Below are positions 2,407 through 34,713 of a stretch of 45,176 bases of DNA, in pieces. The notes under the pieces are model-generated. The model worked only from the letters and a program-made list of their open reading frames with translations. It did no database searches and was not told the DNA's origin. A program made the position numbers and the translations under genes. Numbering within the stretch: the stretch's first letter is position 1; the number at the start of each line of letters is the position of its first letter. The DNA comes from Escherichia phage vB_EcoS-22664BS2. The DNA lies in the sequence record NC_073324.1. One strand, given 5' to 3'.

Positions 2407-2696
2407 TGCCTAAAATCACAATCGCGTCACTTGAGCGTCGTATTCTGGTCCTTGAGTCAGAGAAACAGACGTTAGGCGGGCAACTGTCAATTAACGGTGA
2501 GTTTCAACTGGAGGCGTTTAAGGAGTTACTGGCTATTAAGACGCAAGAACCGAACGTGTACGCGGGGTTGTTCGTCGGTGAAGACAGTTCTTCGCTGGCT
2601 TATTACAACACGGCAACCGCAGCTTCAAAGGATGGGGCTGATGTGATAATCCCGCTGTACGACAATGTTGTCGGACCAGAAGATGAAAGCGCCTGA
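2406..2696 (+). CDS. hypothetical protein
   Basis: ORF track; TAATG overlap with upstream gene. Confidence 0.5.
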   Translation: MPKITIASLERRILVLESEKQTLGGQLSINGEFQLEAFKELLAIKTQEPNVYAGLFVGEDSSSLAYYNTATAASKDGADVIIPLYDNVVGPEDESA

Positions 2697-16354: not shown

Positions 16355-16380
16355 AAGGCCCCTTTCGGGGCCTTTTTCTT
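16355..16380. terminator. bidirectional terminator
   Basis: AAGGCCCC-TTTC-GGGGCCTT hairpin plus T-run, between convergent genes. Confidence 0.6.
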
Positions 16381-16933
16381 ACAAACCTAATTTTAAAGCA
16401 ATGTCTATAACGTTCGATTTAACGTCACCCGGTATGATGTAGGTGTCGTAATCTTTTACACCACTAACATCGTACAGATAGCCACGGCTATCGCAGATGA
16501 ACGTATAGCCGTCACGATGGAGGCGGACGATTCGCACGTCATGCCCCGCGGCGACGATAGGGGCAACTTCACTGGCGAATCCACCATCGGACACTACAAA
16601 AACTTCGTCGCCGTCAGGCAAGTTTTCAGCAAGATACTTACCGAAATAATCATCGCCGAATACCGGTTTAATGAATTGCTCAGAAATGGCAATCATTAAC
16701 CGGCGGCGGGACAACCCATTAAGAAAACCCTCGGGTTTTTCTTTCCGCGCCCGGTCGTCGTAGCCGTCGAGAAATTCGTGGTAAGCATCCTGGCCTAACG
16801 CTGCCAAAGCAATATTGAACATTGGATTCTTGAAACTGGTAGTTCCTTTCGCAAAGCCCATTTCTACCAGCGCCATAGCAAGCGTGTCTTTCCCGCAACC
16901 CGCAGGGCCATTAAGAATAATTACCTTAGCCAT
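16379..16933 (-). CDS. P-loop nucleotide kinase, dNMP-kinase-like
   Basis: Walker A GPAGCGKDT and overall layout resemble T4-type deoxynucleoside monophosphate kinase. Confidence 0.55.
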   Translation of the reverse strand: MAKVIILNGPAGCGKDTLAMALVEMGFAKGTTSFKNPMFNIALAALGQDAYHEFLDGYDDRARKEKPEGFLNGLSRRRLMIAISEQFIKPVFGDDYFGKYLAENLPDGDEVFVVSDGGFASEVAPIVAAGHDVRIVRLHRDGYTFICDSRGYLYDVSGVKDYDTYIIPGDVKSNVIDIALKLGL

Positions 16934-17421
16934 TATTTATCGCTCCCGTGTGGTTTTAAGTGTGTAGAGTTCCCGTTACAGTCGTATTCGGTAACTGCGT
17001 GTGCGGTTATGCCGAGGTCACGGAAATGCTTTATTACCGCTGGAGAGTCGTCGAACGCACACAAGATTCTTTCCAGTCCGAAAGCACGCAACACCTCTTC
17101 TTTAATTACGATGTCTTTTCTGTTGTCGTGTTTGCTGCGCATGATTAGCGTGTCAAACCTAACGTTATTCTCTCGTAACCATTCGCGAGTCTCCTCCTCA
17201 GCGTCATCACTTCGCCCGGTAAGGATAATTATAGTAAGTCCGGAATGCCACAGTACGCTACACAAATGGATATTGTCGTATATCGGAGCGTCATCTTTGC
17301 AGGCCATGTTAAATGGCTTCCACGCCCACGTTTCTCCGTAGTTATCTTTTGGTAACAGGTGTAAGCGATGGGTACCGTCGGCCAATGTCCCGTCTAAATC
17401 GAAAATTACAATATCTTTCAT
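16933..17421 (-). CDS. HAD-superfamily phosphatase (nucleotidase or 3'-phosphatase-like)
   Basis: N-terminal FDLDGTL motif (DxDGT); small capless HAD. Confidence 0.6.
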   Translation of the reverse strand: MKDIVIFDLDGTLADGTHRLHLLPKDNYGETWAWKPFNMACKDDAPIYDNIHLCSVLWHSGLTIIILTGRSDDAEEETREWLRENNVRFDTLIMRSKHDNRKDIVIKEEVLRAFGLERILCAFDDSPAVIKHFRDLGITAHAVTEYDCNGNSTHLKPHGSDK

Positions 17422-18548
17422 CCCAGCATCTCCGGTGAAATAGTTAAACGTGCGACCTCGCCATATTCGGCGCTATAAGTAATTACATTTGCACTGCGGC
17501 CCGACATCCATCCGCCGCGAGAGGCGTAGGCGTCTTTAGCCGCTAAGGTGCGGTGTTGCTCAACAATCATGTTACGGCTTTCTACAATCTTCTGGTGGTG
17601 CAGATGGCCTACGTGGGCGTAGCTGTAAACACTCTCGCCGAACGCTTTACGGAACTTGGCAATCATAACCGGTTCGATAGCGTCGAATCGTGCTTTATGC
17701 CCGTGATGGAAGAACAGCGTCGTTTTGCCGTGTTGCACCATCTTGTAAACATCCGGCGACGTATCAACAATCACTCGGCTGTCGTTTGAGTATAAAACCG
17801 TGAACATTTCGGCAAGCCATACGGAGCCAACAGGGTCGTGGTTACCTTGAACGATTAAAAGTTTTACTGTGTGATGCTTAACCAGCGCCATATCAACAAC
17901 ACGGCGGACCATACGAATCATGTAACGTACCAGTTTCTGATAGCGAGTATCCGCATCTAATACATGGCGCGACTCGGGGGTAACGGCATCAAGACTATCG
18001 AAGTGTGCGAAGTCCCCAAGCAGGTTAATAACTCCTGTTCCTGCATCCGGTGCTTTCTGAAACGCCGCGTCGAACCACCGAGAGAACAGGTCTTCTGCAA
18101 TCTTCATGTCCCAGTCGTCGCCGCTCTCATCGGCCCATGCCAGCATACCGAGATGGAAATCAGATACAGTGTAAAGATTGAGTAGCTTGTCGTCACGTTT
18201 GGCGCGCGCCGCTTTAACAGGCGCAACGGGCGTAATCTCTGACTTCATGCCCTCTATTACGGCTTTCATCAATTCAACCTGACGTTCGGCGTCGGTATCA
18301 GTCTTAACCCATTGCAACTTAGTGTTGCCGAACTCGTCCACAAGTGACGACGTTCCTTTAATCTTGTAGCCGTCTGGCACAAGGTGGCTAACGTCGCGCC
18401 CGTGGCCCACGCCTTTCTTAGCCAGCTTCGCTTTACGGATACGAATTACGCGGTCTGAGATGCCGTATTTACGGGCGATATCTACATTCTTCATACCGGC
18501 GTTCAATTCTTCCTGCAACTGTTCGTCGGTTATTTTCTTCCGGGCCAT
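17418..18548 (-). CDS. metallophosphoesterase with N-terminal HTH domain
   Basis: Calcineurin-like motifs DFH, GDFAHFD, GNHD, HHGH, GHLHH; N-terminal segment NVDIARKYGISDRVIRIRK is HTH-like. Confidence 0.6.
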   Translation of the reverse strand: MARKKITDEQLQEELNAGMKNVDIARKYGISDRVIRIRKAKLAKKGVGHGRDVSHLVPDGYKIKGTSSLVDEFGNTKLQWVKTDTDAERQVELMKAVIEGMKSEITPVAPVKAARAKRDDKLLNLYTVSDFHLGMLAWADESGDDWDMKIAEDLFSRWFDAAFQKAPDAGTGVINLLGDFAHFDSLDAVTPESRHVLDADTRYQKLVRYMIRMVRRVVDMALVKHHTVKLLIVQGNHDPVGSVWLAEMFTVLYSNDSRVIVDTSPDVYKMVQHGKTTLFFHHGHKARFDAIEPVMIAKFRKAFGESVYSYAHVGHLHHQKIVESRNMIVEQHRTLAAKDAYASRGGWMSGRSANVITYSAEYGEVARLTISPEMLG

Positions 18549-28932: not shown

Positions 28933-29068
28933 ACTCTTCTGATAACTTCTCCAGTACAAACGCCAGTTGCGCATTAGCGGCGTCTCTTTGCTGACGTAGC
29001 CGCAGAACCTCTTCTTCGAGTTCCTTGATACGTTTTTGCAATGCCGGAATTGGGGCTATGATGTTCAT
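28931..29068 (-). CDS. small coiled-coil peptide (45 aa)
   Basis: Read by eye; ATGA-type overlap with upstream stop; MNIIAPIPALQKRIKELEEEVLRLRQQ. Confidence 0.25.
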   Translation of the reverse strand: MNIIAPIPALQKRIKELEEEVLRLRQQRDAANAQLAFVLEKLSEE

Positions 29069-29580
29069 CTGGTAAATTTCCTCGCAAGATACGTTATTTC
29101 TTCTTCACAAAGTTCATCAAGGTCGTTAGATACAAATCCTCTGGTGAATGTTTTGCTGAACTTTAATCCAGCTTTATCATTGTCGCCAGCGCACACCCAG
29201 TCATACGGCAAAAGTGACATTTGCTGCCGTAGGTCTGTTGATATATTTGACCCCAGTGCGCTTACAGCATTGAACCCGCAATTCATCAAGGCTACGGCTT
29301 TGAATATGCTTTCGGTAACAAATACCACCCCGCTTTCCGGCAAATACTCAAGCCCCCATAAACACGGCCTTGTTGTTCTGGTAAAGTACCGCGCGTCTTT
29401 AGGGTTTTTACAGTTCTTTTCGGCATGTGGTTTGTAATGCTGGTATCCGCGAAGCCTACCGTCAAACCCCCACAGGTAAAACGTAGCTACTCCAGGGGCT
29501 AAGACTACCTGGAGACGGTCAGCGTCAAACCCACGCGCCAGCAGATGAGCTTTAAGTAGAAACTCTTCGAAATCCATCAT
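29065..29580 (-). CDS. TOPRIM-domain protein (primase catalytic-domain-like)
   Basis: VFVTESIFKA (Glu) and VCAGDNDKAG (DxD) TOPRIM signatures. Confidence 0.5.
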   Translation of the reverse strand: MMDFEEFLLKAHLLARGFDADRLQVVLAPGVATFYLWGFDGRLRGYQHYKPHAEKNCKNPKDARYFTRTTRPCLWGLEYLPESGVVFVTESIFKAVALMNCGFNAVSALGSNISTDLRQQMSLLPYDWVCAGDNDKAGLKFSKTFTRGFVSNDLDELCEEEITYLARKFTR

Positions 29581-31001
29581 TTCTTACCTCGTCTCTTCAT
29601 GTAATTAAGCAACTCTTCCTGTACCGATTTCTTCTCGTCGGTACGCGCGGCGACAACCTCGTCCAGAGTGTCTTTAGCAACGATGTGATAAAGGAACACC
29701 GGGCGCTCGTGACCCGCCTGTTTCTGGCGGACTGGGCCTATGCGCTCAACAACCTGCAAATAGTGCTCAAGGTTCCAGCCTTGCGAGATGAACGCCAGAT
29801 GATGACCCCCGTCCTGTAAATTCAAACCATGCCCGGCTGACGCAGGATGCACGCATAAAATCTCGATTTCCCCACGGTTCCACGCTTCCATCTGCTTGTT
29901 CCCCCTAGCGCCTTTGGCGAACGCCTGTGCCTGTGGGAATCGCTTAAGGATACGCTCCAGTTCGTGTTTAAACTGATAGGCTACCAGCAACGGCGCACCC
30001 TGCAACTCCTCAACAATCGACTCGAGCGCATCCAGTTTCGTGTCGTGCACTTTCTCCCAGTCTTTGGTCGCTTCGCCATCCGGCCCTGACACATACACGG
30101 AACCAGATGCAATCTGCAAGCACTTTGAGGTCTTCGCCGCAGCGTTAGCCGCTTCAACTTCCCCGCTCTCCAGTTCTGCGAATAACTTCTCCTCCATATC
30201 TATGTACGCCTGACGCGCTTTCTTCGGCAGGTCTATTTCCACCGGTACGATAACAGGCGCTTCACAACCAAACCACTCGGCAGGGTCTATGGTCAGGCTG
30301 ATGTCTTTCATCTTCTGATGAATCTCATTATCCGCACCCGGTCGTGCATGATACTCGCGGGCCATAGCCGATTTACCTTTCTGTACCGAGTTAAACCAGC
30401 GGTCGGTGAATGCTGTGTACGAAGAGCCGAGGCGCTCGCCAGCGTCGATAAACCAGTTCTGACCCCACAAGTCTTTGAGGCCGTTTGGTGACGGTGTGCC
30501 TGTCAGGTTGATGAAACGCTTAACCTTTCCGAACGCAACCTTGCTGAGCGCCTTTGCCCGCTTGCTACCACCCGAACGGCTGCGGAACGATTTAAGCTTC
30601 GTGCTTTCATCGGCAACGATAACCGTAAAAGGCCAGTCGTCTTTGCCGTAGTAGTCAATTAGCCACTCGATAACTTCGTAGTTAGTGCACACCACGTTAG
30701 CATCTGACTCCAGCGCTGCGATGCGGCGCTTCTCCGAACCAGTTGCATCTACGACACGCAGACAAGGGAATTGCCATTTCTCTTGTTCAGCGGGCCACGT
30801 ACCGGACGCAACACGTAACGGGGCAAGGATTAACACGCGGTCCTCTTCCGTAAGCTGCCCGTTGCGGAACAGGCGGTTGAGCACCCACATAGTGGAGGAG
30901 GTTTTACCTCCCCCCATTCCGCACCAGATATTACAGCGCGGGTGTTGCAGCATGAACGAGGTCATGAGCTTCTGGTACTCGCGTCTTTGAAACTTAGACA
31001 T
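29577..31001 (-). CDS. SNF2-like superfamily 2 helicase
   Basis: Walker A GMGGGKT, motif II VIVADEST; ATG at codon 42 of track ORF. Confidence 0.65.
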   Translation of the reverse strand: MSKFQRREYQKLMTSFMLQHPRCNIWCGMGGGKTSSTMWVLNRLFRNGQLTEEDRVLILAPLRVASGTWPAEQEKWQFPCLRVVDATGSEKRRIAALESDANVVCTNYEVIEWLIDYYGKDDWPFTVIVADESTKLKSFRSRSGGSKRAKALSKVAFGKVKRFINLTGTPSPNGLKDLWGQNWFIDAGERLGSSYTAFTDRWFNSVQKGKSAMAREYHARPGADNEIHQKMKDISLTIDPAEWFGCEAPVIVPVEIDLPKKARQAYIDMEEKLFAELESGEVEAANAAAKTSKCLQIASGSVYVSGPDGEATKDWEKVHDTKLDALESIVEELQGAPLLVAYQFKHELERILKRFPQAQAFAKGARGNKQMEAWNRGEIEILCVHPASAGHGLNLQDGGHHLAFISQGWNLEHYLQVVERIGPVRQKQAGHERPVFLYHIVAKDTLDEVVAARTDEKKSVQEELLNYMKRRGKK

Positions 31002-31677
31002 GATTAGCCTCGTAAACTGCTTTTGCGAAACCCCGAGGAGTAAGGCTGCGGATTGTTTTTGTCCGCACTGATTTACCGCCAAGTTTGTTGTGCTGGTCAG
31101 AATACCCATCACCCACGGCAACACCTGACTTAACCGGCATTACGAAACCATTACCCGTCCAAAGACATGTCTTTTTAGGGTACGCGTCTCGGGGTTTTAT
31201 GTATTCAGGGAACATTGGATGCGTATCGTCTTCCGGTAGATAGCCGCCGTATTCGTAAGGATTGAACACATAATCGGGCTTACGCCACAAAGACGAGAGG
31301 ACGCTAACTGGGTTCTCAATCATATAAGGTACGTTATACCTTTTAGCCAGGCGTGCCGCCACTTTGCATGTGATAACAGCCTCTACCTGAAACGTTGGGT
31401 TCTTCTTACGCTTCGTTTCGAAATGCGCCGCACCACTAACGGCTAAATCTGTGCAAGGAGGGAACGCAAAAATAATATCTGGCGAAACCTCGAAGTCGAA
31501 CTTATTATCAATCCACGCGTTTATATAGTGGATGTTCTCGTGTTCAACTTTTGCGCCCAATCGCGCGTAGTCGCCGTGGTCGGCACCGTCGTAGTTGAAA
31601 CAATAGCAAGTATGGCCCGCTTCTGCCCACGGTCGGGCCATAAGGCCCGAACCGTCAAACAATGACCAGACAATCAT
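30994..31677 (-). CDS. compact DNA C5-cytosine methyltransferase-like protein (227 aa)
   Basis: Motif I FDGSG, motif IV FPPC, motif VI ENP in canonical order; too short for a full target-recognition domain. Confidence 0.55.
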   Translation of the reverse strand: MIVWSLFDGSGLMARPWAEAGHTCYCFNYDGADHGDYARLGAKVEHENIHYINAWIDNKFDFEVSPDIIFAFPPCTDLAVSGAAHFETKRKKNPTFQVEAVITCKVAARLAKRYNVPYMIENPVSVLSSLWRKPDYVFNPYEYGGYLPEDDTHPMFPEYIKPRDAYPKKTCLWTGNGFVMPVKSGVAVGDGYSDQHNKLGGKSVRTKTIRSLTPRGFAKAVYEANHV

Positions 31678-31865
31678 TTTGCCACCAGCACCAGCTCTTT
31701 ACGCCCGAACGCCGTAACGTTACCAGTTACATCTTCGATAACCAGTTTACCGTTCGACTCGACGAACACCGTATCAACGGCAACAGGGCGACGTGTCTTA
31801 ACGTTGAAAATCATGTCGCCAGGTACGATGTCACGTGCTGGTTTACGGTCATATTCGTGTTTCAT
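31674..31865 (-). CDS. hypothetical protein
   Basis: ORF track; own promoter and AAGGA RBS. Confidence 0.45.
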   Translation of the reverse strand: MKHEYDRKPARDIVPGDMIFNVKTRRPVAVDTVFVESNGKLVIEDVTGNVTAFGRKELVLVAK

Positions 31866-31895: not shown

Positions 31896-32180
31896 CTAAC
31901 TATAATAGTTCGCTATTAGGTCGTCAACCTGTTTAAACGAACCAACGACAAAAACATTTGCACCGCGTTTACGGAATCTTTCATGCTCGCGTAACTGGTG
32001 GGGGTCAGGCTTCGTGTTTTCGTCTTTCTTAATCTCGACGAACCAGATGATACCGCCGGGGAGAATTACCAGCAGGTCCATGGCGGCTCGCCGGCCTTCA
32101 AATGCCATCTTGCGAACGAGGCCACCAATGGCCTCGAATCGCTCTTTTGCGTATTTCTGAATCTTGCCTTCCGGGGTCAT
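31896..32180 (-). CDS. VRR-NUC nuclease
   Basis: DLLVILPGG...FVEIKK pattern (PD-(D/E)XK core). Confidence 0.6.
   Translation of the reverse strand: MTPEGKIQKYAKERFEAIGGLVRKMAFEGRRAAMDLLVILPGGIIWFVEIKKDENTKPDPHQLREHERFRKRGANVFVVGSFKQVDDLIANYYS
31899..31927 (-). promoter_or_regulatory. sigma70-like promoter (TTGACG-N17-TATAGT)
   Basis: Conserved promoter family; lies in the 3' end of the upstream gene. Confidence 0.45.
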
Positions 32181-32333
32181 GAGCGCAGAACCCAGGTTAT
32201 AAACGCTCCTCCGAGAACGGCAACGCCAACAAACTTAAAGAACAGGCCGTAACAGAACATCGCAGCTATTCCCGCGCCGAGTAACAGTGCGAGCATGGTT
32301 ACTATGGTCCTAAATACAAACATTGTCATAATA
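32181..32333 (-). CDS. small membrane peptide (50 aa)
   Basis: Read by eye; hydrophobic; stop overlaps downstream ATG. Confidence 0.3.
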
Positions 32334-32411
32334 CACACCCCTCACGTTTCGTATGCTCAATCCCGCAGCGCGGACAGATTCGGCAGTCTTCTTCGTATAA
32401 CCAGTAAATTT

Positions 32412-32543
32412 TCATTCCAGCACCCACAGATAAATTGCTACTAACATACCCAATACGGCGACCATCATGCCGTATTGGCCCTCGTGACAATAGACACCGG
32501 CGGCGAATCCCGCCAGTACCGCGATAATCAGTTTACTTAGCAT
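32412..32543 (-). CDS. small membrane peptide (43 aa)
   Basis: Read by eye; hydrophobic; overlaps 3' end of polymerase gene. Confidence 0.3.
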   Translation of the reverse strand: MLSKLIIAVLAGFAAGVYCHEGQYGMMVAVLGMLVAIYLWVLE

Positions 32544-34713
32544 AACGCTTCATCTCCGCACCTTCTGCTACAAGAGGGAACCCCTCAGCCCATTCCGGTA
32601 ATTCGCACATCAACCGCTCAAGCTCTGCAACATTGTATTCTGGTAAATCTGGTGTCTCGCAGATAATCTCATCGTGTACGTGAAGCACAATCGGGTATCC
32701 GTTTGCTTCTACGTTCAGCAGGGCGTTAGCCAGCAAATCACGGCACAGCGCCTGAGTGCAGTTTTCCACCAGTTTACCGGAGTAGGTATACTGGAAGCCC
32801 CACTGCCTGGTTAACTGGTTTTCGCCCTGGTACTTGATGCGCACGTTAGTAGACACCTTCCCGTCTTCGTCTGTCTCTTTTGATACACTTAAACCAACGC
32901 CCGGGTAAGACATAACGCGGCCCGACGGCAACGTCATGCGCAACCACCAGCCCGCGACTTTGTTGCCGTTGGTGTCTGTTTCTACGTTACGCGAAAACTT
33001 AACGCCCCGCGGCCCTGCGGTGAACTCTTTACCTGGGTTGCGGATAGCCGCCATAGCTGCATCTTCAATATCTCGCCAGAAAGCTACTGTTTCCGGGTGA
33101 GACTCGCGCCACATGCGCTTGATAGCGTCACAGGTACGCCACACTTTCTTATCAAGAATATATGATGGTCGGTCATCCTTTTCACCTGGACGTGGTGGTC
33201 GCTTGGCTTCCTGAATACGCGCCCACTCATATCCACGTGCGGTAGCGGCCCATATATGGTCCGGGAAAGTACCGTCCATTGTTTTAGCCATATCAACCAG
33301 GTCAAGGCCGAGGTTTTTAGCGAACTGAACGAAAGCACCGACACCGCCCGCGTATCCGAGGCCCAATTCGCAGGCTTTACCAATCTGGCGTAAGTCTTTA
33401 CGTTCTTTCTTAATGTAATCCGGCTCCATGCCAAACATCTTACCTGCTGTTACGCAGTAAATATCCAGTCCGGCGCGGAACGTATCTAGCGCGGTTTCTT
33501 CGCCTGCCAGCCACGCAAGCCCGCGACCCTCAACGTTAGAGTAATCGGCGACGACAAACTTATGCCCAGCTTCCGGTATAATGCAGCTACGAACGGTAGA
33601 TGCCGTCAGCTTGGCTACGTCAAATCGGCGGTGCGCCCGGCCCTTAAGTAACGCTGAAATGCCTTTATCCAGTTCATCATCGTGATAGTACCCACGCGCC
33701 AGGTTCTGTGGCTGGAAGCCTTTACCCGCGAACCGTAACGTACGCTTTGCCCCACCGTACTGGATACAACCGCGGCGTCGGTCGTCCGACGAGCGGCCTA
33801 ACAGCAGCGGGTTATATTTCGTGGACGCTGTTGACGCGGCCCCGAGGCGCATTTCGATAATCATCCGGGCGTCGTCCGGTAAATCATCATCTGCCAACAG
33901 GTCGTTAAGCGTCGACTTCTGTGCATTGTGTATGCGGTGCGCGGGCGCAAGTTCACGCAGAATCGGAAGGAAGTCTTTACCGGTAAGCGAGCCGCCGTAT
34001 TTACGTTGAGCTTCTTCCTGTAACTGTGCCTTGTGCTTCTCTACGGCTTCAATCGCGGCTTCCGCCAGTGCGACGTCAACCTTAAATCCGCGGTCGTTGA
34101 TTAACTGGTCAAGTTCCAGTACACGGTCTTCGAACTCGGAGTTACCCCAACGCGGCAGCTTATGGAAGACTTCACGCATCGCAGTGATGTCGCTCACGGC
34201 GTACCTGATGAACATCGCCCACTCGTCAGGGTGCGTTTCAGCGGTATATCGGCGTATTTTGTAGTTCTTCGGTGTCGGTTTAGAGAAACGCTTAATCAGA
34301 GCCTTGCCGCGTTTATCTTTCGCGTTGTCTGCAGACACGCCCAGCACTTCGCACAGCGCATCAAGAGAACCCGGCAGCGCGTGACGGAACGCCCAAATCA
34401 TAGTATCAATGGTGTTACTTACCGGAATATCAAAGTCCCAGCAGTGTTTCATGATTAGGCGATCGAAAAGTCCACCGTTGTGCCACACCATCTTGATGCG
34501 GCTGTTGGGCTTAACAAGGCGGCGCAGTGCGCGGTGTAAATCCCCCGGCATGTCGCTGCCGTCGGTGCAATCCCATACCCGCACAGGTTCGTCGTCAAAA
34601 GCATATGTACAGATAAGCACTTCGGTTGACGGGTGTTCGGCGTAAGCGTAAGAACCGACTTTCTTCAAATCGGCTTCTGAGAATGTTTCAAAGTCTAAGA
34701 ACAGGTAACTCAT
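32533..34713 (-). CDS. family A DNA polymerase with 3'-5' exonuclease domain
   Basis: N-terminal Exo motif LDFETFS; 726 aa. Confidence 0.85.
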   Translation of the reverse strand: MSYLFLDFETFSEADLKKVGSYAYAEHPSTEVLICTYAFDDEPVRVWDCTDGSDMPGDLHRALRRLVKPNSRIKMVWHNGGLFDRLIMKHCWDFDIPVSNTIDTMIWAFRHALPGSLDALCEVLGVSADNAKDKRGKALIKRFSKPTPKNYKIRRYTAETHPDEWAMFIRYAVSDITAMREVFHKLPRWGNSEFEDRVLELDQLINDRGFKVDVALAEAAIEAVEKHKAQLQEEAQRKYGGSLTGKDFLPILRELAPAHRIHNAQKSTLNDLLADDDLPDDARMIIEMRLGAASTASTKYNPLLLGRSSDDRRRGCIQYGGAKRTLRFAGKGFQPQNLARGYYHDDELDKGISALLKGRAHRRFDVAKLTASTVRSCIIPEAGHKFVVADYSNVEGRGLAWLAGEETALDTFRAGLDIYCVTAGKMFGMEPDYIKKERKDLRQIGKACELGLGYAGGVGAFVQFAKNLGLDLVDMAKTMDGTFPDHIWAATARGYEWARIQEAKRPPRPGEKDDRPSYILDKKVWRTCDAIKRMWRESHPETVAFWRDIEDAAMAAIRNPGKEFTAGPRGVKFSRNVETDTNGNKVAGWWLRMTLPSGRVMSYPGVGLSVSKETDEDGKVSTNVRIKYQGENQLTRQWGFQYTYSGKLVENCTQALCRDLLANALLNVEANGYPIVLHVHDEIICETPDLPEYNVAELERLMCELPEWAEGFPLVAEGAEMKRYAK

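Follow-up and report, generated by a model that had tools for sequence, protein, structure and literature searches.

A compact, probably active DNA cytosine-5 methyltransferase in the replication module of Escherichia phage vB_EcoS-22664BS2

The methyltransferase gene and its protein

The DNA analysed here, 45,176 bp of Escherichia phage vB_EcoS-22664BS2 (record NC_073324.1; the whole stretch is called the window), is the complete or nearly complete genome of a siphophage of the Kagunavirus type (Guernseyvirinae). Direct reading of the window gives, within a minus-strand replication module, an open reading frame (ORF) of 227 amino acids at 30994..31677 (−), the gene of a compact C5-cytosine DNA methyltransferase belonging to the PHROG 757 family. 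By analogy with a homologue of demonstrated activity, the protein is probably a genuine and active C5 DNA methyltransferase. The original prediction, made for this DNA before the present analysis, had described it as an unusually compact C5-methyltransferase-like protein.

Motifs I, IV and VI lie where the original prediction placed them (all coordinates of the gene refer to the minus strand). Motif I, F7-D-G-S-G11, conforms to the FxGxG pattern of the S-adenosylmethionine (AdoMet)-binding loop; the region S5-L-F-D-G-S-G11 (31645..31665), which follows strand β1, aligns to motif I of DNMT2 and to positions 3–96 of PF00145. In the 77-member family alignment from which all conservation counts were taken (35–62% identity), the consensus of this region is SLFDx(T/S)G, the first Gly of FxGxG being variable. 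Motif IV, F72-P-P-C75-T76, contains the catalytic Pro-Cys pair, and its aligned counterpart in M.HhaI and E. coli Dcm is PCQ; F72-P-P-C75-T-D is encoded by 31447..31464 (reverse complement TTC CCT CCT TGC ACA GAT), with the Cys75 codon at 31453..31455. Cys75 is conserved in 76/77 homologues. The Thr that takes the place of the usual Gln after this Cys is indeed present, as had been pointed out before, but it is a trait of the family (68/77, with Gln in 1/77). Motif VI, I120-E121-N-P123 (31309..31320), corresponds in the alignments to ENV in M.HhaI and Dcm, with Glu121 and Pro123 present in 77/77 and Asn122 in 73/77 homologues. Since Cys75 and Glu121 are maintained in such diverse proteins, the motifs are not chance matches.

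The C-terminus lies 104 residues past Pro123, in agreement with the earlier estimate of about 105. At the position of motif VIII, R163-D-A-Y-P-K168-K169-T-C-L-W173 (31159..31191), a conserved Lys replaces QxRxR, and the family shows the pattern D-x-Y-x-K-x-T instead (Asp164 in 72/77, Tyr166 in 77/77, Lys168 in 76/77, Thr170 in 75/77 and Trp173 in 77/77); the corresponding strand, residues 170–175, is present in the predicted structure. Beyond this strand the family members contain 45–88 residues, with a median of 60. Residues 176–208 (31054..31152) form a vestigial target-recognition region. The segment P181..R210 comprises 20–40 residues across the family (median 28) and includes a hypervariable loop, residues 183–198, where variability is highest within the protein (entropy 3.19 bits). 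A target-recognition domain (TRD) of normal size is not present, as the distance from Lys168 to Arg210 is 42 residues, versus 107 between Arg165 and Arg272 of M.HhaI.

The gene ends with a motif-IX-like block and the last helix, I209-R-S-L-T-P-R-G-F-A-K-A-V-Y-E-A-N225 (31003..31053), in which Arg210 (75/77), Pro214 (72/77) and Gly216 (75/77) are well conserved. The best local alignment of R210-S-L-T-P-R-G-F-A-K-A-V is to motif IX, both in M.HhaI (residues 263–284; GGYLVNGKT-RKLHPRECARVM) and in E. coli Dcm (residues 399–415; RRLTPRECARLMGFEA), with modest statistical support, the score being equalled by 21/500 and 44/500 shuffled sequences, respectively. Arg215, conserved in 55/77 homologues, aligns with the Arg of motif IX, a motif which the protein seems to have kept. 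Inspection of sequence and alignments revealed no GN(S/A)V motif X, the protein ending 12 residues past Arg215; only 17 residues follow Arg210, versus 56 past the start of motif IX in M.HhaI, which include motif X (GNSV at 303). The original statement that too little room is left for a TRD and motifs IX–X is thus correct for the reduced TRD and for motif X, but probably not for the block that aligns to motif IX. As judged from these alignments, the ∼100 missing residues are accounted for by the reduction of the TRD to a loop of ∼30 residues together with the lack of a recognisable motif X.

An AlphaFold2 model of the protein, predicted with high confidence (predicted local distance difference test score 95.3, predicted template modelling score 0.91), has the C5-methyltransferase fold with a full seven-stranded core and a C-terminal helix at residues 215–225. 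This structure prediction, which had been proposed as a check, together with the intact catalytic Cys and Glu, supports the assignment as a C5-methyltransferase-like protein. The closest folds are those of DNA methyltransferases, and the best structural match is to the catalytic domains of DNMT3A and DNMT3B. These share only 13–17% identity with the phage protein and, at ∼280 residues, possess a motif X and an oligomer interface. M.HhaI and M.HaeIII, which belong to PF00145, have in common with the phage protein the Rossmann core, motifs I, IV, VI and, as it seems, IX in canonical order and the same expected chemistry; unlike these ∼100 residues longer enzymes, the phage protein has a Lys in motif VIII, lacks motif X and falls below the Pfam gathering threshold. 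It is ∼100 residues shorter than any solved DNA C5-methyltransferase.

Searches of the PDB sequences with the protein and with the 77-sequence profile gave no significant match; the best was DNMT2, a tRNA methyltransferase, with an expectation value (E) of 0.21. Alignment of the family profile to E. coli Dcm with hhalign was limited to motifs IV–VI (E 0.061), as was that to M.HhaI (E ∼0.05; the reference sequence was confirmed to be identical to 10mh_A). The likeness to the CCWGG-specific Dcm goes no further than what annotators call the phage protein and the target site assumed for it, whereas Dcm is a protein of 472 residues with which no TRD is shared.

The PHROG 757 family and the genomic setting

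The protein matches phrog_757 ("DNA methyltransferase") with an E value of 2.2e-87, residues 1–226 aligning to positions 15–219 of the 247 in the profile. Homologues were found by tblastn in 1,526 phage records, 1,472 of which cover at least 80% of the protein; a large protein collection contains at least 7,780 homologue clusters at 90% identity, and an exhaustive HMMER scan yielded 1,294 representatives (50% identity), of which 120 have E < 1e-30. Full-length homologues of 210–260 residues are also found among metagenomic proteins, in the thousands. Lengths range from 210 to 261 residues in the 77-member alignment, with a median of 237, and the core blocks WRKPD, EYGGYLP, RDAYxKxTCLW and IRSxTPRGF are all found in the window protein. 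Phage records in GenBank already label members of the family DNA cytosine methyltransferase, and near-identical copies of the SECphi27 type in BASEL phages carry the annotation "Dcm-like C5 cytosine methyltransferase". The window protein is therefore an ordinary member of a very abundant known family, neither anomalous nor new. The compactness emphasised by the original prediction is real when compared to the solved DNA C5-methyltransferases, but standard among phages, and the alignments identify small size as the family norm rather than an anomaly or error. A frameshift in the assembly, considered earlier as a possible cause of the short length, is excluded because of the coverage of at least 80% in 1,472 of the 1,526 records and the conserved lengths; conservation of the C-terminal block extends to the final residues. 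Longer proteins that contain the compact module as a domain occur in uncultured phages (BFVD entries A0A6J5SE15, 1397 residues, and A0A6J5NPY6, 1126 residues), and further long representatives are P0250 (453 residues) and P0261 (414 residues). One of the long proteins is named helicase/UvrB N-terminal, which recalls the SNF2-fused DNMT5. Such fusions to helicase-like proteins are exceptions.

The replication module is transcribed in the minus direction, starting with a family-A DNA polymerase (32533..34713), followed by two tiny hydrophobic ORFs of 43 residues (32412..32543; phrog_10404) and 53 residues (32177..32338; phrog_14925), a VRR-NUC nuclease (31896..32180), a 63-residue ORF directly upstream of the methyltransferase (31674..31865; phrog_4879, E 2.7e-46), the methyltransferase ORF itself, an SNF2-family helicase of 474 residues (29577..31001; PF00176, E 3.4e-13; phrog_62, E 5e-167) and a Toprim primase-like protein (29065..29580). 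The two tiny ORFs are conserved between the genes for the VRR-NUC nuclease and the DNA polymerase. The start of the methyltransferase gene overlaps the stop of the 63-residue ORF as ATGA. At its other end, the stop codon TAA (30996..30994) and the helicase start ATG (31001..30999) lie in the same stretch, ATGTCTAA, giving an 8-nt overlap, in line with the coupling to an SNF2-like helicase noted in the original prediction. These overlaps of reading frames suggest that the methyltransferase is translationally coupled to the genes on both sides. The helicase start was assigned from the annotation in Escherichia phage SHAK7858 and from the alignment of the junction; translation from ATG 31001 gives 474 residues, equal to the length annotated in SHAK7858. 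In a mechanical ORF list the helicase was lengthened to a GTG at 31124, which would result in a 130-nt overlap with the 3′ end of the methyltransferase gene. This extension is probably spurious and not translated, because relatives annotate the start at ATG 31001.

A 4-kb stretch around the methyltransferase gene has matches in 452 phage records, the closest being Escherichia phages SHAK7858 (98%) and JSSK01 (91%), followed by Kagunavirus phages and Raoultella phage RP180. In the 98%-identical SHAK7858 the methyltransferase gene is precisely missing (30994..31677 of the window compared with 2440..2570 of OR594183.1): the stop of the 63-residue ORF is directly followed by the helicase ATG, and both neighbours are kept. 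Several other close relatives have no annotated methyltransferase at the locus. The SHAK7858 record is labelled Autographiviridae/Kayfunavirus and 'vB_EcoM', a taxonomy that looks wrong because the replication module is 98% identical to that of a siphophage of the Kagunavirus type. The neighbourhood of family members was surveyed in 80 viral contigs, representing 31 methyltransferase lineages at 75% identity, with a 13-sequence alignment as query. A relative of the SNF2 helicase is adjacent in 14 of the 80 loci, all in Guernseyvirinae- or Dhillonvirus-like phages, and no gene cluster is common to more than 5 of the 31 lineages. The methyltransferase gene thus behaves as an autonomous, dispensable accessory cassette, which argues against an obligate partner.

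Some other features of the window do not involve the methyltransferase. GATC is nearly absent, with 8 sites in the whole window (6087, 9839, 10738, 12914, 19011, 21014, 34461 and 43555) against an expectation of ∼157 from the Markov model or 176 from composition (z about −12). This deficit points to strong selection against restriction directed at GATC or against processes linked to Dam; a Dam gene was not seen. CTAG is also low (27 sites against 72 expected), and GGGCCC, CGGCCG and TGGCCA have no sites at all. Within the plus-strand structural region a minus-strand cassette of three genes is found at 16379..18548 (−), encoding a 376-residue protein with a weak match to calcineurin-like phosphoesterases, a 162-residue phosphatase of the HAD/PNKP type (E 3e-20) and a 184-residue protein without a match. 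This cassette might serve the repair of nucleic-acid ends or nucleotide metabolism.

Relation to the K42 enzyme and alternative explanations

The closest experimental counterpart of the window protein comes from a study of retron Ec86 (bioRxiv 10.1101/2023.08.16.553469; published as Wang et al., Cell Rep 2024;43:114857). All retron-escaping mutants of phage K42, which shares 95% identity with KarlJaspers/Bas06, disrupt a 711-bp "Dcm-like" gene; four escaper phages had lost or silenced it, and a "Dcm-like" protein is encoded by 34 of 35 Ec86-sensitive phages. When expressed alone, K42 Dcm was toxic only to retron-carrying cells. Its expression in E. coli raised the 5-methylcytosine (5mC) content of the retron's multicopy single-stranded DNA (msDNA), as measured by LC-MS (mass spectrometry coupled to liquid chromatography), and no rise was observed with the mutant C82A/E128A/K175A/K176A. 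Ec86 no longer defended against K42 once the CCTGG of the msDNA stem was mutated (10.1101/2023.08.16.553469).

The homologue from SECphi27 (Warwickvirus; 711 bp, 236 residues) has Cys 82, Glu 128 and Lys-Lys 175/176, matching the numbering of K42 Dcm, and shares 57% identity with the window protein over the full length (E 1e-96). Residues Cys75, Glu121, Lys168 and Lys169 of the latter align to the four positions mutated in K42 Dcm. The two proteins have the same family, architecture and catalytic Cys/Glu/Lys-Lys set, with 227 versus 236 residues, but belong to different lineages, Kagunavirus-like and Warwickvirus (Drexlerviridae), and their sequences are unrelated in the loop 183–198. By these comparisons the window gene is related at orthologue level to an enzyme that has been shown to form 5mC, for which no other phage protein was needed. 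Formation of 5mC and triggering of the retron, demonstrated on the 57%-identical homologue, may also apply to the window protein. Virions of T5, BF23 and Bas26 have been reported to be free of 5mC, and no inference for the methyltransferase family is drawn from this; T5.047 is not a homologue, and no homologue was found in positions 1–50,000 of T5, the part covered by the scan.

Taken together, the protein most probably belongs with the DNA cytosine-5 methyltransferases of the PHROG 757 ('Dcm-like') family as an AdoMet-dependent enzyme that is active and self-sufficient, an explanation to which we assign a probability of about 0.8. A number of observations weigh against this assignment. The PF00145 profile matches the protein only in motifs I–IV and below threshold (E 0.008; 16.1 bits with a cut-off of 22), it reaches E ≤ 0.01 in only 3/77 family members, and no NCBIfam model was found that matches the family. 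The motifs depart from the canon in several respects: Thr for Gln in motif IV, ENP for ENV, Lys for the motif VIII Arg, the unconserved first Gly of motif I and the missing motif X. CCWGG was assumed for the phage enzyme from the analogy with host Dcm and is unmapped; furthermore, in dcm+ MG1655 the CCTGG-bearing Ec86 msDNA contained little 5mC and no autoactivation occurred before the phage enzyme was expressed (10.1101/2023.08.16.553469). It follows that the phage enzyme is no mere copy of host Dcm, from which it differs in site, substrate form or level, and that the assignment of CCWGG to the phage 'Dcm' does not fit the msDNA data fully. Compared with the Warwickvirus enzyme, divergence is greatest in the loop that occupies the TRD position, so that the specificity may differ even between these two. 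In the window, CCWGG occurs at 83 sites against 121 (Markov) or 90 (composition) expected, a mild under-representation. This count is uninformative, since neither avoidance nor enrichment is strong enough to be interpreted.

Such considerations make it possible, though doubtful, that the protein is a C5-methyltransferase whose target differs from CCWGG, or whose specificity is relaxed (to a site of 2–4 bp, for example), owing to its recognition loop of ∼30 residues. The TRD position, with 20–40 residues only, varies more than any other segment in the family, it differs strongly between the window protein and the K42-type enzyme, and no similarity to E. coli Dcm is found outside motifs IV–VI. 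In addition, the target site of the family is unmapped, host Dcm did not reproduce the effect of the phage enzyme, and other clades of phage C5-methyltransferases prefer GpC. On the other hand, the loss of defence against K42 upon mutation of CCTGG in the msDNA stem points to CCWGG, and many phages that carry the family were recorded on E. coli K-12 MG1655, although some isolation hosts are restriction-deleted. MG1655 is mcrBC+ and would restrict dense methylation of cytosines preceded by a purine, which counts against a relaxed specificity. A wider and equally tentative proposal is that PHROG 757 represents a minimal natural C5-methyltransferase of ∼230 residues, without canonical TRD or motif X, in which the hypervariable loop of 20–40 residues reads a non-CCWGG site that differs between lineages, possibly as a DNMT3-like dimer.

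The remaining explanations concern the autonomy, the product and the role of the enzyme. A main role other than protection of phage DNA, i.e., methylation of host DNA or RNA, regulation, or an inactive remnant, is improbable. The gene is dispensable, since a 98%-identical phage does without it and K42 escapers carrying a deletion are viable; the only match at sequence level in the PDB is the tRNA methyltransferase DNMT2, and no member of the family is known to confer an anti-restriction phenotype. A remnant, however, is contradicted by the strong conservation of the catalytic residues across 77 diverse members, and the closest folds are DNA methyltransferases, the homologue methylated DNA, and the gene resides in a DNA replication module. 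It is very unlikely that the compact enzyme depends on a partner, either the SNF2 helicase or the upstream 63-residue protein, in analogy to the SNF2 domain of DNMT5 or to DNMT3A with DNMT3L. The frame overlaps with both genes, the best structural match to DNMT3A/3B, which work as oligomers, and the long helicase-like proteins of some uncultured phages to which the compact module is fused would be compatible with such a dependence, which the original prediction had also envisaged. Against it, plasmid-expressed K42 Dcm alone raised 5mC and triggered the retron, no neighbour is conserved across the 31 lineages, and both the 63-residue ORF and the helicase persist in SHAK7858, which has no methyltransferase; the neighbourhood statistics, with adjacency in 14 of 80 loci, led to rejection of the SNF2 helicase as an obligate partner. 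A homodimer of the enzyme is still conceivable. Hardly to be expected is a transfer other than that of a methyl group, either of a carboxymethyl group from carboxy-S-adenosylmethionine (made by host CmoA) to give 5-carboxymethylcytosine, as by phage CmoX, or as the start of a hypermodification. CmoX, a DNA C5-carboxymethyltransferase, is a full-sized enzyme with Arg350 in motif X, usually encoded beside cmoA (PMC12783734), whereas the window protein contains FPPC instead of SPPC and has no motif X. Its Arg215 lies on the motif IX Arg, not on the motif X Asn position that defines CmoX, and is conserved in only 55/77 homologues; no cmoA-like or hypermodification genes were found among the window ORFs scanned. 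The other base modification suggested in the original prediction is made unlikely also by the 5mC product of the homologue, identified by LC-MS in an assay that left out 5-carboxymethylcytosine.

Proposed function and implications

As an active and self-sufficient C5-methyltransferase, the protein would be produced from a gene transcribed with the replication module and, through the frame overlaps, translationally coupled to its neighbours. It would methylate duplex DNA after replication by the standard C5-methyltransferase chemistry, with AdoMet as the methyl donor. Cys75 is predicted to attack C6 of the flipped cytosine, while Glu121 would hold N3/N4 and Lys168 would stand in place of the motif VIII arginine. 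The catalytic Rossmann core appears to be complete for this task, comprising seven strands, motifs I, IV and VI, a motif-VIII-like strand and a putative motif IX. The likeliest benefit to the phage would be protection of its DNA from cytosine-sensitive restriction, probably by methylation of a short specific site, for which CCWGG serves as working assumption. The cost would be that the same activity can trigger retron Ec86/Eco1. The presence or absence of the gene in otherwise similar phages may plausibly reflect a trade-off between an anti-restriction benefit and this sensing by the retron.

For the phage itself, the result amounts to the routine annotation of an accessory DNA cytosine methyltransferase. 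Its virion DNA may contain 5mC, a point to consider in cloning, restriction mapping and nanopore basecalling, and some cytosine-sensitive restriction systems may be evaded. The analogy with K42 suggests that retron Ec86/Eco1 may sense the phage as well, which could explain why near-identical phages differ by the methyltransferase gene and matters for the choice of therapeutic phages per host. The wider interest lies in the family, which is abundant, goes unrecognised by Pfam and NCBIfam, falls ∼100 residues below the solved C5-methyltransferases and has an unmapped target site. If the tentative proposal of a minimal enzyme is true, PHROG 757 would provide the smallest known active DNA C5-methyltransferase scaffold, with a swappable recognition loop.

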